Positions 1,633-25,384 of a stretch of DNA of 25,384 bases are shown here, piece after piece. The first letter of the stretch is position 1, and every line of letters begins with the position of its first letter. Origin of the DNA: a virus. Its lineage: Duplodnaviria > Heunggongvirae > Uroviricota > Caudoviricetes. A model generated the notes under the pieces. It worked only from the letters and a program-made list of their open reading frames with translations, did not search any database and was not told the DNA's origin. Both the position numbers and the translations under genes were made by a program. The stretch is taken from the IMG/VR virus record IMGVR_UViG_2718218100_000015; one strand, written 5' to 3'.

Positions 1633-1764
1633 ACATCATCTAACAATGAATTAGATGCATTTTCCGCTGACGCCTTAGCATATAACTTTTAAATTTTATC
1701 GATATATATTTTGAGATAATTTCCTGTAGCGGATTTAAGACCGGCACAGCCGGTCTTAGGTCAG

Positions 1765-4098: not shown

Positions 4099-4111
4099 TG
4101 TGCGGCCCTCC

Positions 4112-5210: not shown

Positions 5211-5467
5211 GCATCACATCCCCGCCCACGGGCGCTGATGCGGTCCGCCATCCATGCGCTGACCTCAGACTGTGCCCAGGCGACATTTTTACCGCCAAGC
5301 GGGATCTGCTTCGGAAACGCATCGCGGCTGATCAGGTCGTAAACGGTCGAACGGGACAACCCGCATAAGTGCATCACCTCAGGCAGGCGTAAAAATCGCT
5401 CATGATGGTTCGATACAGGAAATAATGGCGCAGCAGGAGCTGGCGCAGACACAGAAATATTACGCAT
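5207..5467 (-). CDS. AlpA/Vis-family prophage transcriptional regulator (86 aa)
   Basis: [32 protein letters not shown]...[14 protein letters not shown] matches the AlpA-type HTH pattern; sits at the head of the leftward operon ending in primase. Confidence 0.8.
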
Positions 5468-6302: not shown

Positions 6303-6320
6303 TGTCTTGTCGCTCGCACA
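6303..6320 (+). promoter_or_regulatory. TGT-N12-ACA dyad, candidate Ogr/Delta-dependent late promoter element upstream of sid
   Basis: tgt cttgtcgctcgc aca at 6303-6320, centred about 80 nt upstream of the sid ATG at 6391; P2/P4 late promoters carry this dyad near -55. Confidence 0.45.
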
Positions 6321-6390
6321 ATGGCGTTCAATGGCAGCTTTGTATGCATCACAGCACAATTGACACCACGACAAACCACTAGGTGCTGAC

Positions 6391-7143: not shown

Positions 7144-7691
7144 TGGCCCGAGTCACTCCAGACCAAGCGCTTATCAGTTTTAGAAATGCCCGTATTCTGT
7201 GGGCTGGACATAGTGAGAGCCGAAAAGCCGTTGAACAACAGATAGAATCACTCCTCACTGCCATGGAAAAACCAGCAGATTATGCTCGACAGCTCGAATT
7301 ACAGCGGGAACATCTGGATGTGCTGAAATGGCAAATTAACTGTGCTGCGCGCGAATGCATTTACTCGCAGCATCAACTGATGGAGGCCTGCACAGAAGAC
7401 GCTCTCAGCAATTTTATGCAGGCGAATGGAGCAGCCCTGACATCTGCACTGGCTCCGTTCCTGAAGGGGCGCGGAGGGGTTGACGTTGCGTCCCGTATAT
7501 TACGCAATGCTCTGGTTCGCCAGCTGGCAATAACACCGCCTGAAATTGCCGGGGATTATCGTATGATTCTGGATGAATCCGGTGTGATGCCTGACCCCAT
7601 GATGGTTCGTGATTGCCAGAGCTCTTACACCCCTGCACAACAACTGCGCTTTCAGCAACGTCTGGATTACATTAACGGCATGCAGGAGTAA
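7140..7691 (+). CDS. psu: Psu-like polarity suppression / capsid decoration protein (183 aa)
   Basis: ATGA overlap with sid; recalled similarity to P4 Psu (KWQINCAAREC, QANGAALTSALAP, YTPAQQ) and size close to 190 aa. Confidence 0.65.
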   Translation: MMARVTPDQALISFRNARILWAGHSESRKAVEQQIESLLTAMEKPADYARQLELQREHLDVLKWQINCAARECIYSQHQLMEACTEDALSNFMQANGAALTSALAPFLKGRGGVDVASRILRNALVRQLAITPPEIAGDYRMILDESGVMPDPMMVRDCQSSYTPAQQLRFQQRLDYINGMQE

Positions 7692-7696
7692 TATTA

Positions 7697-7969
7697 ATGG
7701 CACTTAAATGTCCCGAATGCGGTACGACGGCACACGCCAGAACCTCCGCCTATGAAGCACCATCGGTTAAACGCTCATGGTATCAGTGCCAGAATCTTGA
7801 ATGTTCCTACACATTTACCGCACTGGAAAGTGTGGATACGATAATCATGAAGCCCCGGCGCAATGAACAGGAATCAGAGAAAGCACAAATGCCGGAAAAA
7901 CAACAGCAAACTCTCAATCGCTATGGCTCCGCGTCAAAGCTGTCAAGCCGTCAGCAAATTCCTGTCTGA
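7697..7969 (+). CDS. Ogr/Delta-family zinc-finger late transcription activator (90 aa)
   Basis: CPECGTTAHARTS...YQCQNLECSYTF is the Ogr/Delta C4 zinc-finger signature; GGAG RBS at 7685-7688. Confidence 0.85.
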   Translation: MALKCPECGTTAHARTSAYEAPSVKRSWYQCQNLECSYTFTALESVDTIIMKPRRNEQESEKAQMPEKQQQTLNRYGSASKLSSRQQIPV

Positions 7970-7990
7970 TTAGCAAAAAAAGCCCACGTA

Positions 7991-8017
7991 ATCCCGGTCC
8001 AGTACTGGGATTTTTTA
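7991..8017 (+). terminator. intrinsic terminator after the late operon
   Basis: Hairpin atcccggt-ccagt-actgggat (8-bp stem with one GU pair) followed by TTTTTT at 8011-8016, 22 nt after the delta stop. Confidence 0.55.
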
Positions 8018-8378
8018 CGCCTTTTCCCTGGCTGGCCTGAGAGCGCATGAGTGCATGTCTATAGCGCATGAAAACGCATGATTCTCATGCACCATTTTTG
8101 ACGCGAAAGCCCTTGTGTGGTGGCTTCTGAGACGATTTGCGGAATGCATGAAAACCAGTCTGTTAAGCGAAGCGAGCAGGCGTGGGGGGCTGCGCGCGCT
8201 AAGGGGTTAGATTATAAAATATCAAACGCCGGTGAGATCCATTATTGTGGAACCACCCGAAGGAAGTGTAGAGGCGAAAGTACCCAAAATAATTTTGCAA
8301 ATTATTTAGAAATGAACTGAGCGCTCGAAACGAAATATAATTTCGAGCACCCCAATTAGCAGTTATATTTTTAATGTA

Positions 8379-8945
8379 TTAAACAGGATAAAAACCAGAG
8401 CTTCCATTCTTATTTAAGTTATGGATTTTATTTGCATCATTAATTTTTATTTGGAACGTCGGACCTTTATTCTCAAGAATTACAATCTGGAAATTATAGT
8501 CCCTTTTGATTAATGCGTGATAAAATGAATCACTGAGACTGACGCTATTAACATCCGATAGAGAACCCCCTCTATCTTTATCAAAGTGCGTCACTAATGG
8601 ACTATCAAGCACAACAAATCCAATGAATGGATTCCCTTTTCTTGATAAAAATTCCGCAAAGCAAATGGTAAATATAGCATGCATTACTGCACGGGTACCT
8701 TTACCAAACATTCCTCGGCGTTTCCCATTGATATTAAAGTCATATGTATCTTCGTCAAATCGCACTTTGTTATCTTTAGAATTTTCAAAATTTATATCAT
8801 TCAAAAAGTCTTGCATCGCTATTTCTATATCATACAAATCAGCTACTGTTAAGGAGTCAAAGTCCTCGGCGGAGTATTTAAGTTCGTCAACATCATCTTC
8901 TTTATCTTGTAATGAAGATAGAATGCTATGTTTTGTGTGATCCAT
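8379..8945 (-). CDS. C-terminal ATPase part of a split SMC/ABC-type ATPase (signature-like FGKGTR, Walker-B-like FVVLDSP), 188 aa
   Basis: ATG at 8943-8945 overlaps the upstream stop (TAATG); FGKGTRAVMHAIF...FIGFVVLDSPLVTHFD resembles ABC signature plus Walker B/D-loop; last gene of the AT-rich cargo operon. Confidence 0.5.
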   Translation of the reverse strand: MDHTKHSILSSLQDKEDDVDELKYSAEDFDSLTVADLYDIEIAMQDFLNDINFENSKDNKVRFDEDTYDFNINGKRRGMFGKGTRAVMHAIFTICFAEFLSRKGNPFIGFVVLDSPLVTHFDKDRGGSLSDVNSVSLSDSFYHALIKRDYNFQIVILENKGPTFQIKINDANKIHNLNKNGSSGFYPV

Positions 8946-9535
8946 TAAAAGATTGTCTTTATATTCATAAAGTGATTCAAGAGATGAATGTATTGTTTTA
9001 TATTTTTATCTTCTAACGTCTTAAAATCACTTTTTTCTGATTGATAAATTTCATTAACATCATTTTTTCTTAACATAATTAATTCATGTTCGCGAACATT
9101 AGATCCGATTGATTCAATTAATCCTTTCAGCTGGCTTTTGATTTTCAATTTTTCTGCATTACACGACAAAAAACAATCATCATATGATATTTCATTTTCT
9201 TTTTTTTGCGGTGTATTACAGAACTCACAATAAATATCTGCAAAATTATTTAAATAGAAATTCGCCTGTGATACAACATCTATTCTTTGTAGATCTATAA
9301 AGTATTGGTCTTTAAGAAGACTAAATCTTTCAATGAGTAATGATAAGTATTTTTCCCTGTCACTGATTGAATATAATTCATCACTTAACTCTTTTAATAA
9401 TTGCTTCTTATCATCAAGTGCATCAACAATACCTTTCAATATATCTTTCGATGATTCAATATCTTGCTCTACTTTCTCAAGTTCTCTTGAAACAATGACT
9501 TGATCATATTCAGGATAAATTAATTGCGCTTTCAA
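8945..9535 (-). CDS. coiled-coil middle segment of the same ATPase (196 aa); no ATG, follows an in-frame TAA
   Basis: In the same frame as ORF 9566-10225, separated only by TAA at 9566-9568 and 10 sense codons; heptad-like charged sequence with CEFC...CFLSC Cys pairs. The ORF-track 'start' is TTG. Confidence 0.45.
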   Translation of the reverse strand: MKAQLIYPEYDQVIVSRELEKVEQDIESSKDILKGIVDALDDKKQLLKELSDELYSISDREKYLSLLIERFSLLKDQYFIDLQRIDVVSQANFYLNNFADIYCEFCNTPQKKENEISYDDCFLSCNAEKLKIKSQLKGLIESIGSNVREHELIMLRKNDVNEIYQSEKSDFKTLEDKNIKQYIHLLNHFMNIKTIF

Positions 9536-9565
9536 TTCCTCATAAATATTTGCAATTTGATTTTT

Positions 9566-10198
9566 TTAAAAATATCTTGCTTTTTTATTTGGTTTTTCTG
9601 CTAAGGAGTTAGTATCATCTCTCTGAGTTAAAAGGAATTTAAATTCAGACTTTCTTTTTGTCTCCTCGCTAGGAATATCAGAAAGAATTAACGACTTCTC
9701 AGTTAACACTCTTAATTCATCAATATAAAAAAATTCAAAAACATTATTAAGATTAAATTTATGAAGAGTATTACTTAAGTTTGTTCTTACTTTAGCCTCT
9801 TTGAAATTCAACCTACCATAAAAGTATGATGAAAAACTCTTTTTAGACGAAGCACTTTTGGAAAAAACCATCAACAGATTAGCTTCACTAACATTTTCAA
9901 TGCTCGAATCATATAATCTGTAATGGGCGCTATCCTGAAGAGACCTCTCAATTGTCATTACCCTACCTTGAAAATTAAATTCCAGATAGGCTAAATCATA
10001 ACCTTGAGCATGATCGATATCTTTATTTTTTAGTTTTTCACTCCCTAATAAATATCGAATCAAATAATATATGTATGTTTTTCCAGAGTCAGAACCACCA
10101 TATAAAATAGTCAATTTAGAACCAAATTCAATTATAGCATCTAATTTATTGAATCCGGTTACCTTTATTTTTCTGAACGTAAAAAAATTGTCATTCAT
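9566..10198 (-). CDS. N-terminal Walker-A part of SMC/ABC-type ATPase (LmuB-like), terminated by in-frame TAA
   Basis: ATG at 10196-10198 (MNDNFFTFRKIKVTGF...), Walker A ILYGGSDSGKTY at residues 32-41; ends at TAA 9566-9568 with the reading frame continuing downstream. Confidence 0.55.
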   Translation of the reverse strand: MNDNFFTFRKIKVTGFNKLDAIIEFGSKLTILYGGSDSGKTYIYYLIRYLLGSEKLKNKDIDHAQGYDLAYLEFNFQGRVMTIERSLQDSAHYRLYDSSIENVSEANLLMVFSKSASSKKSFSSYFYGRLNFKEAKVRTNLSNTLHKFNLNNVFEFFYIDELRVLTEKSLILSDIPSEETKRKSEFKFLLTQRDDTNSLAEKPNKKARYF

Positions 10199-10649
10199 AA
10201 TTAAATTCCATATCATATTTGCCAATTTTATTTTTTATAATTGATTGCAACTGCTCATCAGGAATATCACTATATAACTTAACCACCAAATTTATATTAT
10301 GCTCCATCTGCGCAACATATTCATTATGTAGAGAATTTGTAAATGCATATGTTTTTTCAGAAGCTTTATATACAAAACCACGATGTGTATAAATTTTTGA
10401 GGCTAGTTCATAGCCTTGCAACAAAGCCAATGATTCTAAAACAATCTCTCGTTTTAGGGCTAACTGAGCATCTCTACGGGGTATTGGAGGATGAAGACTA
10501 ATCTCTTCAGGTAAAAAATCCTTAAGATTTACTAAAATAAAATCAAAACAAATAAGCCGTTCAAGGCTTAATGAAGAAGGATAAATAGCGACGAGCACTT
10601 TCGCCATTCGACATGCCACTTCTAAACTTGAATTATAAATTCTAACCAT
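10191..10649 (-). CDS. small hypothetical protein (152 aa) of the cargo operon (LmuC-like position)
   Basis: ATG at 10647-10649 overlaps the stop of the upstream ORF (TAATG); stop overlaps the start of the ATPase gene; no recognisable motif. Confidence 0.45.
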   Translation of the reverse strand: MVRIYNSSLEVACRMAKVLVAIYPSSLSLERLICFDFILVNLKDFLPEEISLHPPIPRRDAQLALKREIVLESLALLQGYELASKIYTHRGFVYKASEKTYAFTNSLHNEYVAQMEHNINLVVKLYSDIPDEQLQSIIKNKIGKYDMEFNYE

Positions 10650-11266
10650 TATCTCACCGTCCAAATTACTTCACCATCATTAACCAAATGATGGCATATT
10701 CCTTTTTTATCATTTGCTTCACATATTTTTGATAGTACTGAATGTGCAATTGGTGTCAGAACAGCCTGCTTCAAGACTGCATTACACCTAATAAATGCAT
10801 AATTATGGTCTTCATAAAAGACGGGTTCAATTGAAGATGAAATGTAACATTTCAATGCTTTGAATACATCATCTTTAAATACTTCGCGGACAAAAACCTC
10901 AAGCGAAGATGCAAAATAAAAATCATTTCTACTATTATTAAAGTGTCGTCTGTATGGATCATCAAGCTCTAAGAAAGAACTATAAGTTTTATTTCCATGC
11001 TCTGAATAGGCTTGAAGCAGTGCATTAACATATACAGACTCTTTTTTTGAATTGTATGTTGGAATTTCATTTGGAGGGATTCTCACGACATACAGCTCGT
11101 TAAAGTACTTAAAATAAAGGTGTGTATTTGCAATATCATTTAAAATCAATGATAAGGGTAGAGAGTAAAAAATACTAAAATCAAAATCCTCAATATATTT
11201 TTTTATTTCATCATCTAATGGAATATCAATCTTTTTAGTTATTTTTTTGAAATTGCTGAATCCCAT
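10649..11266 (-). CDS. C-terminal portion (205 aa) of putative effector; probably the same gene as 11239-11655 after a frameshift
   Basis: Overlaps the upstream ORF by 28 nt around an A7 run (T7 at 11242-11248 on the plus strand); the two frames differ by 1. Confidence 0.45.
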   Translation of the reverse strand: MGFSNFKKITKKIDIPLDDEIKKYIEDFDFSIFYSLPLSLILNDIANTHLYFKYFNELYVVRIPPNEIPTYNSKKESVYVNALLQAYSEHGNKTYSSFLELDDPYRRHFNNSRNDFYFASSLEVFVREVFKDDVFKALKCYISSSIEPVFYEDHNYAFIRCNAVLKQAVLTPIAHSVLSKICEANDKKGICHHLVNDGEVIWTVR

Positions 11267-11655
11267 GAATCAAGGACTGCTTTTTTAAGCTCGTTTTTAT
11301 TTTTCAATAAATTAGAAAATGTAGTAGATAAATCATAGGGTGCCACAAAAAAGTACTTCTGAGGGATGGGATAATCACCATTCAGAGTAAAATAGATAAG
11401 TTTTCCAAACTCAACTACAACATCAGAGAACCCTAAACTTTTTTTGTACAGTTTGCATTGATAATTATCCCAAGAATAACCTTCTACGTTAGGATCCGAT
11501 TTATATCCAACAACGTCTCTACCTTTATCTCCAGCTCCTCCCAAACGTTCGCTCCACGGGTAATCATCTGATTTACAGACAATAAGCCAATCATGGACAA
11601 ATACCTCCCATTGTTCATCATCCCATGTCAATATTTCCGAAAGTGGTTGAGACAC
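11239..11655 (-). CDS. N-terminal portion (138 aa) of putative effector with Mrr/Cap4-like PD-(D/E)xK nuclease signature
   Basis: GGAGDKGRDVVGY...NYQCKLYKK fits the D-x-G-x-D ... Q-x-K pattern of Mrr-type restriction-endonuclease folds; first gene after the integrase in the cargo slot. Confidence 0.5.
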   Translation of the reverse strand: MSQPLSEILTWDDEQWEVFVHDWLIVCKSDDYPWSERLGGAGDKGRDVVGYKSDPNVEGYSWDNYQCKLYKKSLGFSDVVVEFGKLIYFTLNGDYPIPQKYFFVAPYDLSTTFSNLLKNKNELKKAVLDSWDSAISKK

Positions 11656-11658
11656 AAA

Positions 11659-12840
11659 TTAACTCCTTTTTAGTCTTTCAAATATCAAATTACTGTACCA
11701 GTCCATCATAGACTTCCTTCCACTAAAATATTGAGCATGGTTATAAGTCCCCCTAATAGAATTTTTATCTACATGAGCCAACTGGATTTCAATCCAAGCA
11801 CTCTCAAAACCTTGCTCATGCAGGATTGTAGAAAGGGTATGACGAAAACCATGTCCAGTGACTTTTCCTCCATACCCAATACGCTTAATGGCTTGATTTA
11901 TACTCGCTTCGCTCATTGGCCTATTCGGATCGTTCCGCCCTGGAAAAACATAACGATAGTTCCCTGTCATGATCTTGAGTTCATTGAGTAAATCTACCGC
12001 TTGAGATGATAAGGGCACAAGATGTGGCCTACGCATTTTCATCCTTTCAGCAGGAATTTCCCAAATAGCGTTATCCAGATCAAATTCTTGCCATAATGCC
12101 GCGCGTAATTCGATGGTTCTCACACCCGTAATCATCAGTAATTTCGTGGCTATCTGGACAAGCTTACTCCCGGAGTAACCCTCTAAGGCACGTAGAAAAT
12201 CAGGTATCTCATCAGCTTTTAGGAATGGGAAATGATTGGATTGGTGTACTTCGAGAGCGCTGGAGAGCTCAGCCGCAGGATTGTACTCCGCCCTACCCGT
12301 TGCAATTGCGTAGCGAAACACTTCGGAGCAACGCTGCCGCACTTTGCGCATTTTCTCCAACGCACCACGTTTCTCAATTTTACGCAGAACGTTCAGCAGC
12401 TCTAGCGGTTTAATCTCTCCCACAGGCCTTGTTCCGACATAAGGAAAAATGTCGTTCTTAAACGCTTCCATGATGTCTGATGCATATCCCGCCGACCATT
12501 TAGCAGATTTAAGTTGATGCCACTCTCTGGCTATCTTTTCGAAGGCGTTCTCTGACTCTGTTTGCATAGCTAGCTTTTGCTCTTTTCGAACCTCACTAGG
12601 GTTCTTTCCTTCTGCCACAAGTTTTCGAGCTTCATCACGACGGGAACGAGCATCGGCAAGGGTGATCGTTGGGTAAACACCAAGCGAGATCATTTTGGGT
12701 TTGCCGGCATAGCGATAGCGGAACCGCCAACTCTTGCTTCCATTAGGTTCTATAAGTAATGACAACCCTAGCCCATCTCCAAATGTATAGGCTTTAGCTT
12801 CAGGCTTAGCGCGGCGAATCTGCATATCGTTTAAAGGCAT
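11659..12840 (-). CDS. int: P4-type tyrosine integrase (393 aa)
   Basis: ATG at 12838-12840 (MPLNDMQIRRAKPEAKAYTFGDG...); catalytic region HGFRHTLSTILHEQG ... IRGTYNH; lies 160 bp downstream of a tRNA-Thr 3' fragment in the same orientation. Confidence 0.9.
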   Translation of the reverse strand: MPLNDMQIRRAKPEAKAYTFGDGLGLSLLIEPNGSKSWRFRYRYAGKPKMISLGVYPTITLADARSRRDEARKLVAEGKNPSEVRKEQKLAMQTESENAFEKIAREWHQLKSAKWSAGYASDIMEAFKNDIFPYVGTRPVGEIKPLELLNVLRKIEKRGALEKMRKVRQRCSEVFRYAIATGRAEYNPAAELSSALEVHQSNHFPFLKADEIPDFLRALEGYSGSKLVQIATKLLMITGVRTIELRAALWQEFDLDNAIWEIPAERMKMRRPHLVPLSSQAVDLLNELKIMTGNYRYVFPGRNDPNRPMSEASINQAIKRIGYGGKVTGHGFRHTLSTILHEQGFESAWIEIQLAHVDKNSIRGTYNHAQYFSGRKSMMDWYSNLIFERLKRS

Positions 12841-13002
12841 GTGTATAGGAATCCAGACCGAACAGGAACATATACACAATCCTATACACATTCAGTACCG
12901 GATTCTACTGGATGGTTACGGACTACTATGGACTTAAAAGAATAAAAAATGTTATAAATCAGAGATTTTATGGACTAATACGGACGTTTGAGGAAGTTGA
13001 GA

Positions 13003-13048
13003 TGGTGCCGATAATAGGAGTCGAACCTACGACCTTCGCATTACGAAT
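13003..13048 (-). other. 3' fragment (about 46 nt) of tRNA-Thr(CGU), thrW-like; att-site remnant, 5' half absent
   Basis: Reverse complement reads ATTCGTAATGCGAAGGTCGTAGGTTCGACTCCTATTATCGGCACCA (anticodon loop through CCA end); sequence beyond 13048 does not continue as D-arm or acceptor stem. Confidence 0.75.
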
Positions 13049-13249
13049 TATAAGAATCCGCTTCTAATTCAAAGCATTACCCCATCAACACTGCGCTCAC
13101 ACGTCCCACCACATCAAAACATGTAAAGCCTTGCAAGCCATTGCGAGGCCTTATGTGTCTCAGTTTTGTCCCACCTTGTATTACGACTTGCATAGCCAAT
13201 GAAGATAAACGTGACGACAAACGGCGCAGCAGTCTTCTTTTCTTTCACG

Positions 13250-13795
13250 ACTTCTCCAGCATGCATACCTTTCTGCCATGACTGAAGTGAATGCCTGTTA
13301 TGAGCAAGGATTGGCCCAGATGAATCGCCCTGGACTGTTGCGATCGTGAAGCCATAGACTGGGCCGCAAGCACGGGAGGTTACGATAAAGCGACAGTGCA
13401 GGATGTCATGTTAGGAGCGATAGAAAAACGCTTTGGCGATAAAGTACCGGAACAGTCCATCCAGTGGCTGACAGATAACGGTTCAGCGTATAGAGCGCAT
13501 GAAACACGGCAGTTCGCCAGAGAGTTGAATCTGGAGCCCTGCACAACGGCAATCAGCAGTCCTCAGAGTAATGGAATTGCAGAAAGGTTCGTGAAAACGA
13601 TGAAGGAAGACTACATCGCGTTCATGCCGAAACCGAATGTAAGAACGGCATTGCATAATCTTGCAGTGGCGATCGAACATTACAATGAAAACCATCCGCA
13701 CAGTGCGTTGGGTTATCGCTCTCCGCGAGAATATCGACGTCAGCGGGTAACGTTAACTTAAGATACCCCCCCTGTCTGGAAATAAGGGGGCAAGA
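13250..13795 (+). mobile_element. IS2-group (IS3 family) insertion sequence remnant, right-end portion only
   Basis: Encodes a transposase C-terminus resembling IS2 OrfB; terminal sequence tgtctggaaataaggggg at about 13773-13792 resembles the IS2 right end; left boundary approximate. Confidence 0.6.
13321..13761 (+). pseudogene. IS2-like transposase OrfB, C-terminal fragment (DDE/rve domain tail)
   Basis: Frame reads [35 protein letters not shown]...[25 protein letters not shown]...[20 protein letters not shown]...[19 protein letters not shown]; upstream frame closed at 13321. Confidence 0.7.
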
Positions 13796-13802
13796 ACAAT
13801 GA

Positions 13803-14546
13803 TCAGATTCCCTGGTGAGTAAGAATTTTACTTTCTGAACTCCTCTGAGAGTATTGACTTGGAGAAACACCAAAATAACGTCTAAATACATAAGTAAAGT
13901 ATGAGACACTGGCATAACCACAGACCTTAGCTACTTTACTAATAGGATAACAACGAGTGCTGAGTAAATATTCAGCCATTTGCATCCTCTCATCAAGTAT
14001 GATCTTACTGAATGATACCCCCTCTTCTTTCAATTTCCTCTTTAGTAAACTTTCGCTGAGATATAATCTTGATGATATATCCTTAAGACGCCATGGTGCA
14101 GATAAATCCGTATGAATAATCGTTTTAACTTTAGCCCCTGTGCTTTTCAAACATCCAAACAGAAATACTCCAAATTGTTTTTCAGAAGAAAATGCAGAGA
14201 GACATGTAAAAGCAATAGACTCATCAAAAATTTCTATGTATTCAGCACAGTGATTAGCCCAACTAATTAATCCTTTAATTAAACTGAAGTCAGCAAAGTT
14301 TATTTTTAAATAAGATGGATATTCCCTACAATCAGAAATATCCCTTAAGTTATTAGCTTTCAAATAGCGACTAATAAACTCAGCGCCAAAATCCGCCACT
14401 ATCACTCTTTCAGGATATGTCAGGAAAAAATCTCTAGAGCTAGAGTCGACAAGTACAGATGAACCTCTCTCCAGAAACACACTCTCTTTTCCGAAATAAA
14501 CATCAAAGGACTCCAAAATCAATATAACTGAACATGTAGTTGCCAT
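13803..14546 (-). CDS. AraC-family transcriptional regulator (247 aa), AT-rich, Rns/AggR-like
   Basis: C-terminal HTH_AraC region LSESLLKRKLKEEGVSFSKIILDERMQMAEYLL...ISKVAKVCGYASVSYFTYVFRRYFGVSPSQY; low GC with a long AT-rich upstream region. Confidence 0.75.
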   Translation of the reverse strand: MATTCSVILILESFDVYFGKESVFLERGSSVLVDSSSRDFFLTYPERVIVADFGAEFISRYLKANNLRDISDCREYPSYLKINFADFSLIKGLISWANHCAEYIEIFDESIAFTCLSAFSSEKQFGVFLFGCLKSTGAKVKTIIHTDLSAPWRLKDISSRLYLSESLLKRKLKEEGVSFSKIILDERMQMAEYLLSTRCYPISKVAKVCGYASVSYFTYVFRRYFGVSPSQYSQRSSESKILTHQGI

Positions 14547-15128
14547 ATCATCCCCCCAATTTAACTGAAACCAGGATGAAGTATATGTATATAAAGTTCA
14601 CTTTGCCAAACTTCAGTATAAAAAACCACTAAAAATAGGGTGTGATAAAAAATACCGTAACAATAAAGCAAAGGATTATAAATTCCGTTACAGTTACAAA
14701 TGATACTCAAGAAACAATTCCTTAGGAAAAACTTATTTACAGCCAATAAGTAAGACACTTATATGATATCAAGTTTTCATAAAACATAACTAGGCTAAAT
14801 AGCTGCGCCTAATACCGCTACACTTTTGCCAGCCCATGTTTGCCTCCGGGTATTGACCCCTTCTCTACGCAACTTCAGTTCCCACCACCAACTTTGCGGC
14901 AGCTTTGTAGGATCAATGTCTAAAAGAATAATGGTGACCGATAAGAAAACGACTGAATAACTGCAGATTTTCGCTCAAAACCTTCCTGTCAGATCCATAG
15001 CGAATCAAGTGCTGAATGTCACAGTATCGAACAGAAAACAGTGACGATCTAACCCTTCAAGAATATTCTACGATTGTTCTGTTTAGGAAAAGCAAGACGG
15101 GAAGTCGGGAGATAAGTCATTGATAAAG

Positions 15129-15190
15129 TGGCGGAGAGAGGGGGATTTGAACCCCCGGTAGAGTTGCCCCTACTCCGGTTTTCGAGACCG
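15129..15190 (-). other. 3' fragment (about 62 nt) of tRNA-Ser(CGA), serU-like; att-site remnant, 5' part absent
   Basis: Reverse complement reads CGGTCTCGAAAACCGGAGTAGGGGCAACTCTACCGGGGGTTCAAATCCCCCTCTCTCCGCCA (anticodon loop, long variable arm, T-arm, CCA); upstream sequence does not continue as tRNA. Confidence 0.75.
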
Positions 15191-15273
15191 ACCCGATCAT
15201 CAAACGAAACATAAAATTAGCTCACATTATGAGGAAAGGTATCTTTTTGCGCTATGTAAATTCAAAGGGTTAG

Positions 15274-16143
<870 letters not shown>

Positions 16144-16200
16144 ATCTTCAAGTGGTAAGCATAAACCGCAGCACGATCTTGCATACGACGTGCTACGGTT

Positions 16201-16755
16201 TCATTTATCTCCGGCCGGAAACTTCTTATACAGTGTCGATACACCAACATCATAGATGATCGCTACCTTCTGGCGAGGAATTCCTGCTGCAATTAATCGT
16301 CCGGCCTGCGCCCATTGTTCTGGTGTAAGTTTGGGACGACGTCCACCAATTCGTCCCTGTGCGCGAGCAGCTTCCAGTCCAGCTTTTGTTCGTTCAACAA
16401 TCAGTTCTCGTTCCATTTCAGCCAGGGCCCCCATCACATGAAAGAAAAAGCGCCCCATTGGGGTACTGGTATCAATAGCATCCGTCAGGCTGCGAAAATT
16501 AACGCCACGTTCGCGCAACTCCTCAACCAGAATGACCAGATGCCGCATACTGCGCCCCAGCCGATCCAGTTTCCAGACAACCAGAGTGTCACCTGCCGAT
16601 AATGTCCTGAGCAGTTTTTTCAGTCCCGGCCTTTCGGACTTTGTACCGCTTATCTTGTCTTCAAAAATCAGCTCGCATCCTGCACAGTTCAGCGCATTAC
16701 GTTGTAGATCTGTGTTCTGGTCATTTGTTGACACACGTACATAGCCAATAAGCAT
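16201..16755 (-). CDS. pin: Pin/Hin/Gin-family serine DNA invertase (184 aa)
   Basis: MLIGYVRVSTNDQNTDLQRNAL... with catalytic Ser in VRVST and a C-terminal HTH; very close to e14 Pin as recalled; adjacent to the invertible segment. Confidence 0.9.
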   Translation of the reverse strand: MLIGYVRVSTNDQNTDLQRNALNCAGCELIFEDKISGTKSERPGLKKLLRTLSAGDTLVVWKLDRLGRSMRHLVILVEELRERGVNFRSLTDAIDTSTPMGRFFFHVMGALAEMERELIVERTKAGLEAARAQGRIGGRRPKLTPEQWAQAGRLIAAGIPRQKVAIIYDVGVSTLYKKFPAGDK

Positions 16756-16821
16756 GGTAGATCTCCCTGACAAAAGCAGGAATGATGCCATTTGCTCGTT
16801 ATTTCTGCATTTTCATAAACG

Positions 16822-16852
16822 TTGGTTTGGGAGAAGGTGCTCCAGCTATTGG
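16822..16852. repeat. left crossover site (inverted repeat) of the Pin invertible segment
   Basis: ttggtttgggagaaggtgctccagctattgg is the inverted complement of 18574-18603 with one single-base indel; lies 67 bp upstream of the pin start. Confidence 0.6.
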
Positions 16853-17067
16853 CGTTCCGTTCTTCTGGCGTCCGCTGCAATGCCAAATACTGTAATCGAC
16901 AGCTGGTCCTGTATGGTGTTTTGAAGTTCAACGGCGCGAAATTCTCTGCCACTGATTATCCTGTGCTGGCGAAAGTGTTTCCTTCGCTGGTATTACCTGA
17001 AGCCGCGGTGATTTCATTCGTATCTGGGATGACGGGCGAGGTGCAGACGGTGGTCGCGAATTATTAA
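16822..17067 (+). pseudogene. alternative tail-fibre C-terminal variable module (silent orientation)
   Basis: Frame starting inside the left crossover site encodes ...KFNGAKFSATDYPVLAKVFPSLVLPEAAV..., typical of a tail-fibre tip; would be joined to the constant part after inversion. Confidence 0.4.
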
Positions 17068-17284
17068 GCTGGCAGGCAGCTACAAACTTTTCTCAGTTTG
17101 CCGGAATATAGGCGAAGGTGCGGGACACGCAATTAACTTTCATGATGGCATCGCCGGAAATCAGCCAGGATTTTCACGATTTAATTTCACCAGTAACTCT
17201 GTGGGTGATGGTGTGAATTTTGTTGCAGTCAGACGCGAATATTGCATTTAACTTTCTGGTGAGGCTAAATAATGAAACCTGTTT

Positions 17285-17793
17285 TTGATGAAAATGGCTG
17301 GCTACAGTGCCGGGCGATATGCGTTGTTTTATTATGATGCTGAAACATCTGAGTATACGGGCTGGTCTGATGAATATATTAATACTGGCGTAAGTATGCC
17401 GCCTGTTCCACTGGTATTGACCTGGCGAAAACATTCGGGAAGAGTGGCAGTATTTACAGGTAAGGATGGAGCCATGAAGAAGACCATCGCAATGAGACTG
17501 TTTACTCAATCGAAATGGCGCAGCTGTTACAGTGGATTATATCGGTGCCATCAAAGACGGTTATGTCACGATTTCACCGTTAACGCCATACGATAAATGG
17601 ATGGTGAGAAATGGTGACAGACACTGAGGCACAACACAGTGCCGCAGTAGACGCGGCAGAAGCACAGCGCCAATCACTGATTGATGCAGCAATGGCTTCC
17701 ATTAGTCTGATTCAGCTGAAGTTACAGCCGGACGGAACTGACTCAGGCAGAACAACCCGACTTAACGCCGTGCTGGATTACATTGACGCGTGA
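17285..17793 (+). pseudogene. tail fibre assembly (Tfa-like) gene, frameshifted
   Basis: N-terminal ...FYYDAETSEYTGWSDEYINTG... and C-terminal ...EAQHSAAVDAAEAQRQSLIDAAMASISLIQLKL...TTRLNAVLDYIDA lie in different frames; the expected ...APD(V/I)IW... tail is in yet another frame downstream. Confidence 0.5.
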
Positions 17794-17835
17794 CGGCAAC
17801 AGATACCAGCACGCGCCGGATGTCATCTGGCTGAA

Positions 17836-18247
17836 CTGCCGGAGCGTAGGCCATTCAATATCTGGCGCACCGGAAGTATCGACCAGCTCCAGTGCGTCCA
17901 GATAATCCAGCCACAATTATATTGCGTCAGTTCGTCACCTTTCAGACGACCAATAGCCGCTTTACGGGCCATTGCTTACTGTTCATGTATTCGTTGGCCT
18001 GGTTAATTAGTAGCTGTCTTTCTGATTCAGTAATTTCAATAAGCTCTTCATGCGTGGTGAATATCTGCCACGCAGGCAGCCATCATCTCCGGCAATACGG
18101 ATTTTCCTTGTGCGGTTCAGCCATAAACTCACTGATAATATTTGATTACTTCCTTAGCGTCTGATAAATCCCATCCCTCTGATTATATTTATCAATCATA
18201 TCACAGGAAAAAGCATTATGCCTTGCGCTATAAACATATTCGTCCAT
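17836..18247 (-). pseudogene. second, convergent Tfa-like gene (minus strand), degenerate
   Basis: Manual minus-strand translation gives MDEYVYSARHNAF... from an ATG at 18245-18247 and a C-terminal WLDYLDALELVDTSGAPDIEWP at 17836-17913, with frame breaks between. Confidence 0.3.
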
Positions 18248-18465
18248 ATAAATCACCCTGAATAAAATTACTCACCACAGCCCACCAACTGTAATTCATC
18301 GATACCGTGTCGCTGGTTGATGACGTTCTGTAAGCAGAATTAAAGCGTTAACGTTGGCCTTCTGCAGTCATCACGAACCTCGCCAGCGCCTAAAGGCGCA
18401 CCGCCATCACCAGAATGAGTAAGCATGGCGCAGTCCGCTTTTTGGGAAAGGATGCTGAATGTAAT

Positions 18466-19250
18466 TCATTGTGCGTCGATAATGTCGGCGTAACCGCACA
18501 CGACCATATTGCAGGATTTCCCGTTGAATTCACCATCATACCACTGGCAAAGAGGCATGCCGGACGACCCGCCCAATAGCTGGAGCCCTTCTCCCAAACC
18601 AAGGTTTTGAAGAGCCGTTTTCACCGTGCCGTCCGATTTGATATCGCCAAACGGATTCTTGCGGCTCAGGTATTCAACAGCAAACCCCGATCCCAGCAAT
18701 TCAACAAAACCGGGCAGATCACCATTATCAAGCACATCCCGTTGCGTTTTATCACTTACAAACTGGGCCAGAGCTGCAGCAATAAAGCTGGCCTGCCGAA
18801 TAACCTTATTGACTTGCGCACTGGATGCTTTCCCTGCTGTAAATCCGGATATAAGCGCAGGCAACGCTTCCCATTCCTCCTGCGACATAACATTGGCATT
18901 TCGATCAGTTGCAAACGCTTTAAAGTCATTTTTCGCCATCAGAGTAATACTCCCCATGCCCCTACATCAAAACCACTGATGAATTCGTTATCCATATCAA
19001 AACCAAAAAATTTAGAGCCTTCCGATGGAGTTTCCACCGAAGGTGTTTCAATGCCCCCCGCCCATACCCCGGCGGCTTTTACTGTTAGATACCCCTGTTT
19101 AATTGCCGCAATTAACTCACGCGATACATCTGAAATATCAGTATCAGGAAAGACCCAGACCGATATCGTCATGTCCTGGTTATCGATGTTGGCGATCCGA
19201 CGCATCTGCTCACGGTCAAAGTTAACCATCTGTGCGGCGATGTTTTTCAT
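18466..19250 (-). pseudogene. tail-fibre constant-region fragment fused to the first 21 codons of lambda-type P; internal frame break near 18939-18957
   Basis: ORF 18939-19250 starts MKNIAAQMVNFDREQMRRIAN (lambda P N-terminus) then switches to unrelated sequence; ORF 18466-18957 reads through the right crossover site. Confidence 0.45.
18574..18603. repeat. right crossover site (inverted repeat) of the Pin invertible segment
   Basis: ccaatagctggagcccttctcccaaaccaa; inverted copy of 16822-16852; lies inside the tail-fibre constant-region reading frame (...[12 protein letters not shown]...). Confidence 0.6.
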
Positions 19251-20169
19251 AAATCCACCCCGTAAATCCAGTCAGTGTTTGTCAGGTCGAGTTTTGGTTT
19301 GCTGGCTGTCACGCCTGCCTGTTGCTTGTTACGGTTGATTTCGAGCTGGGTCCACTTGTCGCGGAGTTTGGCCGGACTCAGCACGTTACCGGACCAGAAG
19401 TTGTCCTGGCAGGCCCAGCGGAAAAGCACACACATATCGCGGTGGTTACGTCCGTCACGTTCACGCATCAGGCGGATATCGTTAGCCCACCCAGCAAAAT
19501 TCGGTTTTCTGGCTGATGGCGCGATGGTCTTCACCATGTCAAACATCCACTCTGCGGCGGTCAGGTCTTCTGCTGTTCCCCACTTGCTGCCGCTCTGAAT
19601 TGCAGCATCCGGTTTAACCACAGAAAGATCGTTTTCTGGCTGGTCAGAGGATTCGCCAGAATTCTCGGACGAATAATCTTTTCTTTTTTCTTTTGTAATA
19701 GTGTCTTTTGTGTCCCCCTGTTTTGAGGGATAGCAATCCCCCAATTTGAGGGATAGCAATCCCCCAATTTGAGGGATGTTTTATCCCTCGTTTTAGGGGA
19801 TTTTCCCTCGTTTTGAGGGATACACCATTCTGAGATGTTTTTATTTGGTCCAAACATGCCGCCTTGCTGCTTGATAATATTCATTCTGACGAGTTCTAAC
19901 TTGGCTTCATTGCACCGTTTGACAGGTAACTTTGTAATCTCGCTAAGTTGAGAATCGGTGATTCTGTCCATTGGTTTATTCCACCCATAGGTTTTACGCA
20001 GAATGGCAAGCAGCACTTTAAACTGTCGCTTGGTCAGATCTGCGCCCGAATAAGCCTCAAGCAGCATATTTGATAGTCTGGCGTAACCATCATCGAGATC
20101 TGCCACATTACGCTCCTGTCCGGCAAAGTTACCTCTGCCGAAGTTGAGTATTTTTGCTGTATTTGTCAT
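19247..20169 (-). pseudogene. O: lambda-type replication initiator O, split by a frameshift inside the ori iterons
   Basis: N-terminal ORF MTNTAKILNFGRGNFAGQERNVADLDDGYARL... and C-terminal ORF ...NFWSGNVLSPAKLRDKWTQLEINRNKQQAGVTASKPKLDLTNTDWIYGVDL match lambda O; frames differ across 19742-19787. Confidence 0.85.
19721..19830. repeat. ori-lambda iterons (O-binding sites) with an extra tandem 23-bp copy
   Basis: Five iteron-like units on the minus strand where lambda has four; 19742-19764 and 19765-19787 are identical 23-mers (agcaatcccccaatttgagggat); AT-rich tract follows at about 19670-19720. Confidence 0.8.
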
Positions 20170-20179
20170 AATGACTCCT

Positions 20180-20256
20180 GTTGATAGATCCAGTAATGAC
20201 CTCAGAACTCCATCTGGATTTGTTCAGAACGCTCGGTTGCCGCCGGGCGTTTTTTA
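20180..20256 (+). ncRNA. oop: oop antisense RNA (about 77 nt)
   Basis: gttgatagatccagtaatgacc...gctcggttgccgccgggcgtttttt matches the recalled lambda oop RNA, ending in a GC hairpin plus T6; antisense to the cII 3' end. Confidence 0.7.
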
Positions 20257-20495
20257 TTGGTGAGAATCGCAGCAACTTGTCGCGCCAATCGAGCCATGTC
20301 GTCGTCAACGCCCCCCCATTCAAGAACAGCAAGCAGCATTGAGAACTTTGGAATCCAGTCTCTCTTCCACCTGCTGATCTGCGACTTATCAACTCCCACA
20401 GCTTCCGCTGTCTTCTCAGTTCCAAGCATTGCGATTTTGTTAAGCAACGCACTCTCGATTCGTAGAGCCTCGTTGCGTTTGTTTGCACGAACCAT
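20202..20495 (-). CDS. cII: lambda-type CII transcriptional activator (97 aa)
   Basis: MVRANKRNEALRIESALLNKIAMLGTEKTAEAVGVDKSQISRWKRDWIPKFSMLLAVLEWG...; ATG at 20493-20495. Confidence 0.9.
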   Translation of the reverse strand: MVRANKRNEALRIESALLNKIAMLGTEKTAEAVGVDKSQISRWKRDWIPKFSMLLAVLEWGGVDDDMARLARQVAAILTNKKRPAATERSEQIQMEF

Positions 20496-20574
20496 ATGTA
20501 AGTATTTCCTTAGATAACAATTGATTGAATGTATGCAAATAAATGCATACACCATAGGTGTGGTTTAATTGGAT

Positions 20575-20589
20575 GCCCTTTTTCAGGGC
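20575..20589 (-). promoter_or_regulatory. nutR boxB hairpin
   Basis: gccctttttcagggc (rc GCCCTGAAAAAGGGC) between cro and cII. Confidence 0.6.
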
Positions 20590-20613
20590 TGGAATGTGTA
20601 AGAGCGGGGTTAT

Positions 20614-20823
<210 letters not shown>

Positions 20824-20840
20824 TTAGTACATGCAACCAT

Positions 20841-20904
20841 TATCACCGCCAGAGGTAAAGTAGTCAACACGCGCGGTGTTAGATATTTATCCCTTGCGGT
20901 GATA
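20841..20904. promoter_or_regulatory. OR1-OR2-OR3 operators with divergent PR/PRM promoters
   Basis: 17-bp sites tatcaccgccagaggta (20841-20857), caacacgcgcggtgtta (20865-20881), tatcccttgcggtgata (20888-20904) between cro and cI. Confidence 0.85.
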
Positions 20905-20911
20905 GATTTAA

Positions 20912-21628
<717 letters not shown>

Positions 21629-21755
21629 TAGGAAGTAAGTTTTATGTTGACGGCACAGTCAACTTGGCATAGATTAATTAAACCAAGCCCAGCCCCGTTC
21701 GCAGACAATTGTTAATATCTGCATAACGGCTCTGGGCTATTTTTTTGGGACTCTT

Positions 21756-22612
21756 ATGAAGAAAGCAGCAATTTTAATTGATGCGGGTTTTTTCATGCAG
21801 CGTGTTCATGCTACGCATCGTAAACACTTCGCCGAGCATGAACTGACTGTGCAATGCATAATGAAAGTAATATGGTCAATGGTTCTTTCCCATCTTAATG
21901 GAAAACGTCAATCACAAGAACGTAGGGAACCGCTTGAGCTTTATAGAATTTACTTCTATGACTGTCCACCACTCGACATTCAAACACGCCTTCCACTTCC
22001 TGAGCCTGGCAATAAGACGCCTGGTCGCAAGAATTTCAAACTCGAAAAATCATATATTCTGAGAACGGAGCTGCATGAAGAGTTAAGAAAAACTCGAAAA
22101 ACAGCCTTAAGATTAGGGAATCTTGTTGATAATAAGCGATGGCAACTAACTACATTCTCCCTTGATGCTCTGATGAAAGGAACGAAAAAATGGGATGAAC
22201 TGACAAATGATGTTTTTACTATGACATCAAACAAAAACAAGTTGATATCAAGCTAGGGATGGATATCACGACTTTAGCTTATGAAAAACTTGTTGATGTA
22301 ATTGTCCTTGTTGCTGGGGACTCAGACTTTGTGCCTGCCGCCAAACACGCCAGAATTAAAGGTATTGATTTTATTCTTGATCCACTAAGACAGAATGTTA
22401 CCCCATCACTGTCAGAGCACATTGATGGAGTTCAGTCATACAGCTTGATATCAGGACTTGCCGATGCTTTACATGTTGAGCCAGACCCGGCACCTGACTG
22501 GTGGGAAGATCGAAAAAAAGGCAAGCCTAGAGGAAAAAACAATAGCGGTAAACGCAGGTATGGAAACACTCAAGCTGAGTCTGCAAAGAAACATCAAAGA
22601 AATAAACGATAA
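21756..22612 (+). pseudogene. NYN/LabA-like (PIN-fold) domain protein in the position of lambda rexAB; split into 166-aa and 117-aa ORFs by a frameshift near a T5 run
   Basis: ORF1 begins MKKAAILIDAGFF; the second frame reads ...KQVDIKLGMDITTLAYEKLVDVIVLVAGDSDFVPAAKHARIKGIDFIL; the frames overlap across 22211-22256 with T5 at 22213-22217. Confidence 0.55.
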
Positions 22613-22733
22613 TCCCATCAACCCGGCCACCGAGCCGGGTTTTCTTTGCCTCTCGATCGCCCCACCTAAAAACACATAATGAACCGCCCCGGAAATCCTG
22701 GAGACTAAACTCCCTGAGAAAGAGGTAAACAGG

Positions 22734-23060
22734 ATGACTAAAAATACTCGTTTTTCCCCCGAAGTCCGTCAGCGGGCGATTCGTATGGTTCTGGAAAGTC
22801 AGGATGAATATGACTCACAGTGGGCGGCAATTTGTTCCATTGCCCCAAAGATTGGCTGTACGCCGGAGACTCTGCGTGTCTGGGTTCGCCAGCATGAGCG
22901 GGATACCGGGGGCGGTGATGGTGGGCTCACCAGCGCTGAACGTCAGCGTCTGAAAGAGCTGGAACGTGAAAATCGTGAACTGCGCCGCAGTAACGATATC
23001 CTTCGCCAGGCTTCCGCTTATTTTGCGAAGGCGGAGTTCGACCGCCTCTGGAAAAAATGA
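22734..23060 (+). CDS. IS629 transposase OrfA (108 aa)
   Basis: [60 protein letters not shown]... with HTH and leucine-zipper-like C-terminus. Confidence 0.85.
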
Positions 23061-23947
23061 TGCCACTGCTGGATAAGCTGCGTGAGCAGTACGGGGTCGG
23101 ACCGGTATGCAGCGAACTGCATATTGCCCCGTCAACGTATTACCATTGTCAGCAACAGCGACATCATCCGGATAAACGCAGTGCCCGTGCGCAGCACGAC
23201 GACTGGCTGAAGAGAGAGATACAGCGCGTATACGATGAAAATCATCAGGTGTACGGTGTGCGTAAAGTCTGGCGTCAGTTGTTACGGGAAGGAATCAGGG
23301 TGGCCAGATGTACAGTGGCACGTCTCATGGCGGTTATGGGACTTGCCGGTGTTCTCCGGGGTAAAAAGGTCCGTACGACCATCAGCCGGAAAGCCGTTGC
23401 CGCAGGCGACCGCGTAAACCGTCAGTTCGTGGCAGAACGACCTGACCAGCTGTGGGTGGCTGATTTTACTTACGTCAGCACATGGCAGGGCTTCGTCTAT
23501 GTGGCGTTTATCATTGATGTGTTTGCCGGATACATCGTGGGGTGGCGGGTCTCATCGTCTATGGAAACGACATTCGTGCTGGATGCGCTGGAGCAGGCGT
23601 TGTGGGCCCGTCGTCCGTCTGGCACCATCCATCACAGCGATAAAGGCTCTCAGTATGTGTCACTGGCCTATACGGAGCGACTAAAAGAAGCCGGATTACT
23701 GGCATCAACAGGGAGTACAGGCGACTCGTATGACAACGCGATGGCTGAGAGCATCAATGGTCTTTACAAAGCGGAGGTAATACACCGTAAGAGCTGGAAA
23801 AACCGTGCAGAAGTGGAACTGGCCACACTAACGTGGGTGGACTGGTATAACAATCGACGATTGCTGGGAAGGCTGGGCCATACTCCTCCGGCAGAAGCAG
23901 AAAAAGCTTATTATGCTTCCATCGGAAACGATGATCTGGCAGCCTGA
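23057..23947 (+). CDS. IS629 transposase OrfB (DDE integrase-like catalytic domain), expressed as OrfAB by -1 frameshift
   Basis: ...[31 protein letters not shown]...[11 protein letters not shown]...[19 protein letters not shown]... shows the D, D, E catalytic spacing; overlaps orfA in the -1 frame. Confidence 0.85.
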
Positions 23948-24115
23948 GTTCACAGATAAAACACTCTCCAGGAAACCCGGGGCGGTTCATAACCAATTGT
24001 ATTTATTTTAAAATTAATAGGTGCAACTCACTAAACAACGCAATTCTGATCTCTCGATCACCTCCCAAGCCACACAACCCTGCAAAAAATAAATCTATAT
24101 AAAAAACATACAGAT

Positions 24116-24405: not shown

Positions 24406-24465
24406 ATGGATGCACAAACACGCCGCCGCGAACGTCGCGCAGAGAAACAGGCTCAATGGAAAGCA
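24406..24465 (+). pseudogene. N: lambda-type antiterminator N, first 20 codons only
   Basis: [20 protein letters not shown] then the frame reads into unrelated sequence and stops at 24519. Confidence 0.8.
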
Positions 24466-25384
24466 GATCGGATTCTGGCTTCAACATTTCGCAGGAATGC
24501 AACTAAGAGACATTACTGAATCAAAAATTTATTCAGCAATGCAGAAAATGACGAACCGGCGTCATGAGGAAAACTGGAAACTCAGGGCAGAAGCATGCAG
24601 AAAAAAAGGGAAACCTGTTCCAGAATACACGCCAAAACCAGCGTCCGTTGCAACGAAGGCTACGCATCTTTCATTTATAAAGGCCCTGCTAAGAGCCGCA
24701 GAGCGTGAATGGAAAATGCTCGATAAGGCACCAATTATTAAAGTGCCTCAACCAAAGAATAAACGGATCCGCTGGCTGGAGCCCCATGAAGCACAAAGGC
24801 TGATTGATGAATGTCCGGAGCCATTAAAGTCTGTTGTTGAATTTGCACTGGCAACAGGCTTAAGACGCTCGAACATCATCAACCTTGAATGGCAACAAAT
24901 AGATATGCAGCGCCGGGTGGCATGGATAAACCCGGAAGAGAGTAAATCAAACCGCGCAATTGGCGTTGCGCTGAATGATACTGCATGTCGCGTATTGAAA
25001 AAACAAATCGGTAATCATCACCGTTGGGTATTTGTGTACAAGGAAAGCTGTACCAAACCAGACGGAACGAAAGCGCCAACAGTAAGGAAGATGCGGTATG
25101 ACGCAAACACAGCCTGGAAAGCGGCGCTGAGACGGGCTGGTATTGATGATTTCAGATTTCACGACTTGAGACACACCTGGGCAAGTTGGCTGGTTCAAGC
25201 CGGAGTCCCGTTGTCAGTGTTACAGGAAATGGGAGGCTGGGAGTCTATCGAAATGGTTCGTCGATATGCTCACCTTGCACCTAATCACCTTACCGAACAC
25301 GCACGGCAAATAGACTCGATCCTGAACCCATCGGTCCCAAATTTGTCCCAGTCAAAAAATAAGGAAGGTACTAATGATGTGTAA
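24466..25384 (+). pseudogene. int: 5'-truncated lambdoid tyrosine integrase (arm-binding N-terminus missing)
   Basis: From [22 protein letters not shown]... to the end; catalytic motifs RxxR...[11 protein letters not shown]...VRRYAHL present; the ORF-track start at 24410 is an alternate frame of N'. Confidence 0.8.

Follow-up and report, generated by a model that had tools for sequence, protein, structure and literature searches.

A lambda-type replication gene that breaks off shortly before a tail-fibre gene raises two questions: what is the sequence that follows the break, and what has been lost between the two genes? We addressed both in a stretch of 25,384 nucleotides of tailed-phage DNA (IMG/VR record IMGVR_UViG_2718218100_000015), hereafter the window, to which all positions refer. 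On its minus strand, a 103-amino acid open reading frame (ORF) starts with MKNIAAQMVNFDREQMRRIAN, and these first 21 residues are the N-terminus of lambda-type P. The ORF begins at an ATGA overlap with the O stop codon, downstream of cro-cII-O, that is, in the position of P, and the minus strand at this overlap reads ...GGATTTATGAAAAAC... in the window as in phage 21 and in the thrW prophage of Escherichia coli TBE6 (NZ_CP154401.1, 898-937 kb; locus L016 below), which serves as our reference. The remnant is 100% identical to nucleotides 1-64 of P in TBE6 (L016 12155-12218) and to P of phage 21.

The remaining 82 codons come from another gene. Their DNA is 99.15% identical to TBE6 from L016 37106 onward, within the gene for WP_000049950.1 ('DUF2612 domain-containing protein'), and 97.4% identical to phage vB_EcoM-606R2. 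At the protein level, ORF residues 22-103 show no difference from residues 145-226 of WP_000049950.1 (226 amino acids), representing the C-terminal 36% of that protein. The DUF2612 gene lies between baseplate J and the tail-fibre genes in both relatives examined (vB_EcoM-606R2 and TBE6); in the window, the downstream tail fibre and its 1-nt overlap are kept and the upstream baseplate J gene is deleted. More specifically, the stop codon of the fusion ORF (TGA) and the tail-fibre ATG share one base (TGATG). Because the tail-fibre gene has this start codon of its own, P is fused to a baseplate fragment and the tail fibre follows as a separate gene.

The breakpoint was mapped to a single nucleotide on the minus strand, between positions 19186 and 19187, using two independent sets of relatives. 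In a megablast search of window 18300-20200 against phage genomes, the O-P matches (phage 21, lambda and relatives; about 97% identity) all end at query base 1014, corresponding to position 19187. When window 18300-19190 was used as query, myovirus matches such as vB_EcoM-606R2 (about 97%) begin at query base 5, corresponding to position 19186. Since one set of matches stops exactly where the other begins, the left part amounts to 64 nucleotides of P. Three-way alignments place the switch of homology within one base, at ...CGGATCGCCAACA/TCGATAACCAGGACATG... (slash at the join), and the 52-mer spanning the junction is TGAGCAGATGCGTCGGATCGCCAACATCGATAACCAGGACATGACGATATCG. Nucleotide 64 of P is joined to nucleotide 434 of the DUF2612 gene, and the join is in frame: the translation reads ...RRIAN/IDNQDMTISV..., compared to ...LRMQIVDNQDMTISV... 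in the full-length DUF2612 protein. With an expectation of one in three, the frame is preserved by chance. The fusion ORF presumably consists of two non-functional fragments and would be a by-product without function; as O is itself frameshifted, translational coupling to the start of the fusion ORF is probably lost too. The features of the locus are collected in Table 1.

A first reading of this locus, made from the sequence only, had proposed a deletion junction within 19170-19250 that joins 21 codons of lambda-type P, with an ATG overlapping the O stop, to sequence unrelated to P leading into a tail-fibre constant region. The breakpoint indeed falls inside this interval, with both flanks colinear with the TBE6 prophage, and alignment to P of phage 21 and TBE6 bears out the 21-codon remnant. 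The downstream sequence is likewise unrelated to P, being identical to DUF2612 residues 145-226, and the test for a divergent P allele came out negative (see below). The partner had to be revised: in place of the tail fibre, it is the DUF2612 baseplate gene, of which the last 82 codons remain.

Table 1. Positions of the junction and of the surrounding prophage features in the window
Feature	Position	Strand	Basis
Fusion ORF P'(21 aa)::'DUF2612(82 aa), 103 aa	18939..19250	-	ORF list and comparison with TBE6
P' remnant, first 64 nt (21 codons + 1 nt) of lambda-type replication gene P	19187..19250	-	100% identity to TBE6 and phage 21
3' end of DUF2612 baseplate/structural gene (nt 434-681, codons 145-226 + stop)	18939..19186	-	Identity to TBE6 and vB_EcoM-606R2
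stf, constant N-terminal part, own ATG at 18939, runs into invertible segment	18608..18939	-	Sakai annotation, PHROG
Pin-invertible segment with alternative tail-fibre C-termini and two tail-fibre assembly genes	16817..18607		Inverted repeats, both orientations
Inverted repeats (~36 nt) bounding the segment	16817-16852 and 18573-18607		Repeat search
pinE, serine DNA invertase, 184 aa	16201..16755	-	ORF; annotated WP_000904979.1 in identical DNA of other O157 genomes
O with ori iterons, frameshifted	19247..20169	-	Two overlapping ORFs; duplication seen against TBE6
Lambda-type immunity region	20202..21628		ORFs, annotated protein accessions, promoter scan
cII	20202-20495	-	
cro	20614-20814	-	
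pR-like promoter	20839-20867	-	Simple scan
cI, intact, 237 aa	20915-21628	+ (divergent)	

The window matches E. coli O157:H7 chromosomes at 99.6% identity over its whole length, and the element is the thrW cryptic prophage of E. coli O157:H7, named Sp1 in Sakai and CP-933H in EDL933. In the annotated regions (Z1814, AUSMDU00002545, JEONG-1266 and Sakai), it sits at tRNA-Thr (thrW) beside proA. The window carries the hallmarks of this prophage: int is truncated, cI-cro-cII-O-P' is present along with the tail-fibre cassette and pinE, and the P4-like Sp2 comes next. A database entry with precisely this 103-amino acid sequence bears the name 'partial replication protein P for prophage CP-933H [E. 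coli O157:H7 str. EDL933]'. The Sakai annotation calls the element 'prophage Sp1, lambda-like phage'; there, ECs_0279 is listed as a pseudogene of P, exactly 312 bp long, and after it come ECs_0280 (tail fibre), tfaE, yfdK, yfdL, pinE and then the P4-like prophage Sp2. Window and Sakai Sp1 thus share the thrW/proA site, the order cI, cro, cII, O, P', stf, tfa, pin and an identical 103-amino acid protein; sequence identity between them reaches 100% over 12900-16836 and 99.9% over 18573-22103, junction included. They differ in an IS1203/IS629 element plus 576 bp that are found in the window and not in Sakai, and in the invertible segment, which is in the opposite orientation in the window and riddled with indels in that assembly.

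Sp1 has been described as a highly degraded lambdoid prophage, not assignable to a phage family, in which the repressor and cro are conserved; it is defective in integration and replication, all recombination, morphogenesis, packaging and lysis functions are missing, and it neither excises, replicates nor is packaged (Asadulghani et al., 2009; PMC2669165). Mitomycin C nevertheless clearly induces its residual early genes (PMC2669165), and the intact cI and pR-like promoter found here would explain this induction. Our own literature search for CP-933H combined with thrW returned no match. Annotations have listed P of CP-933H/Sp1 as truncated since 2001, so the scar itself is already known. Cryptic lambdoid prophages such as DLP12, Rac, Qin and e14 of K-12 are decayed temperate phages that became fixed in their lineage after large internal deletions, and e14 likewise retains a Pin invertase with an invertible tail-fibre cassette; these four differ from Sp1 in their integration sites and in the modules that they retain. 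The scar is an ordinary one, a remnant within one of the best-studied bacterial genomes that matters little beyond bookkeeping. What is added here is the nucleotide-exact junction, the 24,887-bp loss relative to a retaining relative, the lack of microhomology and the type of the parent phage.

To identify what was lost, we compared the window with relatives that retain the interval. An exact-sequence look-up of the cI protein returned several full-length lambdoid prophages, one of which, in TBE6, is integrated at the same proA/thrW site; the cI, cro and cII protein accessions are the same in the O157 and TBE6 prophages. By BLAST, the minus strand of window 22679-19187 corresponds to L016 8748-12218 with 99.2% identity (about 3.5 kb upstream of the junction), and that of window 19186-18596 to L016 37106-37696 with 99.15% identity (0.59 kb downstream). 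The interval missing from the window is consequently L016 12219-37105, or 24,887 bp, from P nucleotide 65 to DUF2612 nucleotide 433. TBE6 is a relative and not the ancestor, as shown by its different right end, so the true loss may differ from this value by some kb.

The gene content of the interval was read from the TBE6 prophage. Its early region runs int, xis-like, exo, bet, gam, kil, cIII, sieB, N, NYN, cI, cro, cII, O, and continues after O with P (233 amino acids), ren, ninB-G, Q, two tRNAs, a holin, an endolysin and an Rz-like gene. The head module comprises terminase, a DUF1073 portal, a DUF2184 capsid and head genes; the tail module comprises DUF3383 (sheath-type)/DUF3277, baseplate genes, baseplate J and DUF2612 (226 amino acids); and the prophage ends with a gp53-like tail fibre, tail-fibre assembly genes and an invertase remnant. 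Judged from this closest retaining relative, the lost late region is a myovirus-type, contractile-tail module. The sequence-only reading had inferred that about 20 kb of a lambdoid genome were gone, including the rest of P, the late regulator, and the lysis, head and tail genes. The absence of these genes holds, while the implied lambda-type late region gives way to the myovirus-type one seen in TBE6 and the size falls short of the 24,887 bp measured against that prophage.

TBE6 and the window share the integration site, the int end, cI/cro/cII/O/P, DUF2612 and the tail-fibre N-terminus at about 99% identity. Beyond the tail fibre, the right end of the TBE6 prophage differs from the window (93% identity or no match), with an ISVsa5 inside the invertible segment and a truncated invertase. 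Phage vB_EcoM-606R2 (repressor, cro, replication, Q, lysis, terminase, tail, baseplate, stf, invertase) differs from the window in its repressor and replication gene. Like TBE6, it retains the 24.9 kb missing in the window, and in both the genes follow the lambdoid order, the late module is of the contractile-tail type and the tail fibre is invertible; it provides an independent case of this tail module in lambdoid gene order.

Taken together, these comparisons make us confident that the junction marks a large internal deletion suffered by the thrW prophage Sp1/CP-933H, in which P' was joined to DUF2612 and about 24.9 kb were lost. We propose descent from a temperate phage of mosaic make-up, whose early region was of lambda type (int, exo/bet/gam, N, cI, cro, cII, O, P, ren, nin, Q) and whose myovirus-type late region closed with baseplate J, DUF2612, the tail fibre, the genes for tail-fibre assembly and the Pin invertase. 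Once integrated, its genes from cro to the tail fibre would all have pointed in one direction. A break after P nucleotide 64, joined to DUF2612 nucleotide 434, would then have removed the rest of P, ren, nin, Q, the two tRNAs, the lysis, terminase, head and tail genes and most of the baseplate. Loss in a single event appears the most economical reading, and the end state would be equally compatible with several nested deletions. No intermediate deletion forms were seen among 10 contexts of the identical cI, all of which have either a full-length P or the same junction, nor in the 54 contigs inspected with one search design.

The structure of the junction bears on the mechanism. A base-by-base comparison, with both parental sides taken from the 99%-identical TBE6 prophage, found that the two sides share 0 bases immediately before or after the break; the join thus lacks microhomology (0 bp) and is blunt, and a 'TCG..AAC' similarity near the junction is out of register. 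This points to homology-independent (illegitimate) end joining as the likely mechanism and not to homologous or site-specific recombination. Blunt junctions are unusual in E. coli, where illegitimate joins usually show a few bases of microhomology. Two other routes were considered. Deletion mediated by microhomology or short repeats was rejected on the 0 shared bases at the break. Deletion by Pin at a pseudo-site was rejected by inspection, without statistics: the true Pin sites are TTCTCCCAAACCAAGGTTTTGAAGAG-type repeats, the nearest of which is 580 bp from the junction, and the junction (…GCCAACA/TCGATAACCAGG…) resembles a Pin half-site weakly by eye with the break off the central dinucleotide.

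The same deletion could have been produced by excision of an IS629/IS1203 copy, inserted somewhere in the late region, assisted by the IS-excision enhancer (IEE) of O157, with loss of the flanks and an IS-free scar. [quoted passage not shown] The junction itself, however, bears no IS remnant or inverted-repeat fragment between 19186 and 19187, and IEE is characterized as a microhomology-mediated end-joining enzyme (PMC9943667), which fits poorly with 0 bp of microhomology. We consider this route possible but rather unlikely.

That the junction arose by recombination of a lambda-like thrW prophage with a separate myovirus-type or e14-like element is much less probable still. Such an origin is suggested by the flanks, which look like different phage types, lambda having neither a baseplate nor an invertible tail fibre, and would agree with the failure of Asadulghani et al. 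to place Sp1 in a phage family (PMC2669165). In TBE6, however, both flanks belong to one prophage at the same att site; their order and orientation agree with the window, as does their sequence (about 99.2% identity), and the int end, cI, cro and cII are the same; vB_EcoM-606R2 shows the same overall architecture; and the junction offers no homology to drive recombination between prophages. Given that a single prophage at this att site has the two flanks colinear and equally oriented, recombination between two elements is far less likely than an internal deletion.

To determine how widespread the junction is, a 160-nt probe centred on it was searched against 5426 complete E. coli genomes. End-to-end matches were obtained in 204 records, corresponding to 203/5426 genomes, and the named junction-bearing records among those viewed are O157:H7. 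Half-length matches were sampled from the other approximately 3100 records: all 56 of the 56 sampled cover one half of the probe and break within two bases of probe position 80/81, and they fall within P genes of full length or within genes annotated as DUF2612 or baseplate wedge. The junction is identical in seven fetched loci and in the 204 complete records, including Sanger-sequenced Sakai, and the exact 103-amino acid protein occurs on at least 1000 contigs. The junction is fixed clade-wide and is a clean clade-specific marker. At thrW, O55:H7 CB9615 carries a different full-length lambdoid prophage with a different immunity and lambda-type head genes, so this strain gives no date for the deletion.

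These data leave virtually no chance that the junction is an assembly chimera or misjoin. Such a suspicion could be raised by the adjoining invertible segment, which is visibly corrupted by consensus errors in the window. Yet the corruption ends at the inverted repeat 18573-18607, the following sequence up to 22103 agrees with Sanger-sequenced Sakai across the junction, and the 204 complete assemblies are independent. The presence of the junction in Sakai, in the original EDL933 annotation and on at least 1000 contigs rules out a misassembly.

The annotation of the ORF was finally examined using domain and protein families. A Pfam scan of the 103-residue ORF found no match to Phage_lambda_P (PF06992); membership of that family requires a full-length protein of about 233 amino acids including the C-terminal part, and here only residues 1-21 match, so the ORF is a fragment. 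A 22-residue PHROG family matches the P stub. The DUF2612 fragment scores 20.3 bits against Pfam DUF2612 (PF11041; cutoff 23.5, E about 6e-4 to 8e-4, profile positions 135-177 of 181), below threshold because only the last third of the domain remains. PHROG 587 ('structural protein') matches ORF residues 18-96 with E=2e-14, and the 103-amino acid protein clusters with full-length 226-amino acid DUF2612 proteins at 90% identity. PGAP gives a 261-nt piece the name 'phage replication protein, missing N-terminus'. Applied to the second half of the ORF, this name is wrong and probably stems from historical naming of the fusion protein. Apart from that PGAP name, nothing speaks for the sequence after codon 21 being the true coding sequence of a divergent P allele, a reading that we discard as next to impossible given the residue-for-residue identity to the TBE6 DUF2612 protein, the 90% clustering with such proteins, the sub-threshold Pfam match to DUF2612 and the match to PHROG 587, with none to Phage_lambda_P, and the occurrence of the same DNA inside a gene annotated as DUF2612 or baseplate wedge in the sampled genomes that lack the junction.

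Downstream of the junction, the internal deletion leaves the tail-fibre cassette. Sakai ECs_0280, a tail fibre of 264 amino acids, begins 1 nt before the end of ECs_0279, and PHROG tail-fibre families match the N-terminal 120 amino acids of the TBE6 homologue. The cassette has the organization of a shufflon-like Pin/Gin/Cin system, with repeats inside the tail-fibre gene, an adjacent invertase and both orientations represented. Among genomes, the segment is found in both orientations, with intact ORFs of 264/197 or 236/147 amino acids; in Sakai, the ORFs of the segment are intact (264, 197, 147 and 136 amino acids).

In the window, the segment is damaged. Compared to Sakai, window 16812-18563 is inverted and differs by 65 single-base deletions, 1 insertion and 1 substitution; compared to an Illumina-type contig, it has 79 deletions, all within the segment. 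Deletion-only differences confined exactly to the invertible segment point to a consensus artefact arising from reads of both orientations, in which case the broken tail-fibre frames of this and many other complete O157 assemblies are probably spurious and Pin is probably still switching. The junction lies outside the segment and is untouched by this artefact. Many long-read O157 assemblies would accordingly contain indel-corrupted, falsely 'pseudogenised' tail-fibre genes, which may be the more practical observation of this study.

The deletion appears to have placed the tail-fibre/invertase cassette directly downstream of the cI-controlled pR-cro-cII-O operon. The same simple scan that detected the pR-like promoter detected no intrinsic terminator on the minus strand down to position 18400. 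One may speculate that the remnant was thereby rewired: the cassette, which is intact in good assemblies, and Pin would come under the SOS-inducible pR, DNA damage would lead to phase-variable fibres, and this could account for a cassette, pin and cI preserved across the clade. We hold this to be very doubtful; if true, co-resident defective prophages could use the phase-variable tail fibres of O157:H7 to change host range.

Upstream of the junction, O carries an exact 23-bp tandem duplication of the iteron unit ATCCCTCAAATTGGGGGATTGCT at 19732-19777, resulting in five iterons and the O frameshift. The duplication is present in the window and in most other genomes. JEONG-1266 (O157:H7) has a single copy of the iteron unit and an intact O of 299 amino acids together with the same P junction, which makes the O frameshift younger than the deletion. 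In other O157 genomes, match lengths of 1929-1939 bp for a 1901-bp query suggest further variation in iteron copy number. An oop promoter/terminator pair is present at 20144-20253. With its intact cI, the remnant may still confer immunity against phages of the same immunity type; the same 237-amino acid cI sequence also occurs in several full-length lambdoid prophages at other att sites.

An NYN-domain gene at 21756-22612 occupies the lambda rexAB position beside cI; it is split into ORFs of 166 and 117 amino acids in the window and is a single 285-amino acid ORF in other prophages with the same cI. Adjoining it, IS1203/IS629 lies at 22680-23987 with a TTA target duplication, and among other genomes an IS occurs at this site in either orientation. 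In Sakai, the IS is missing together with 576 bp to one side of it (the counterpart of window 22104-23991), a one-sided loss that fits the pattern given for IEE-promoted IS excision with flanking deletion. A second scar is found at approximately 24460-24466, where the 3' part of int is joined directly to the first ~60 nt of N with a microhomology of at most ~1 nt; compared to TBE6, about 5.3 kb are missing there (int N-terminus, xis, exo, bet, gam, kil, cIII, sieB and most of N).

At the other end, cargo lies between pin and attR (approximately 13800-16150): a LEM-3-like gene with a GIY-YIG nuclease domain, a gene for a regulator of the AraC family and part of an IS3-family transposase; the TBE6 prophage has nothing equivalent to this end. 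The right end of Sp1, attR, is marked by 47 bp at 13002-13048 that duplicate the 3' end of tRNA-Thr (thrW). The P4-like satellite Sp2, a prophage that seems to have inserted into the duplicated att site, occupies positions 1-13000, with genes for an integrase, an ABC-three-component system, an AAA ATPase, ogr/delta, psu, sid-like and Icd-like proteins and a primase-helicase.
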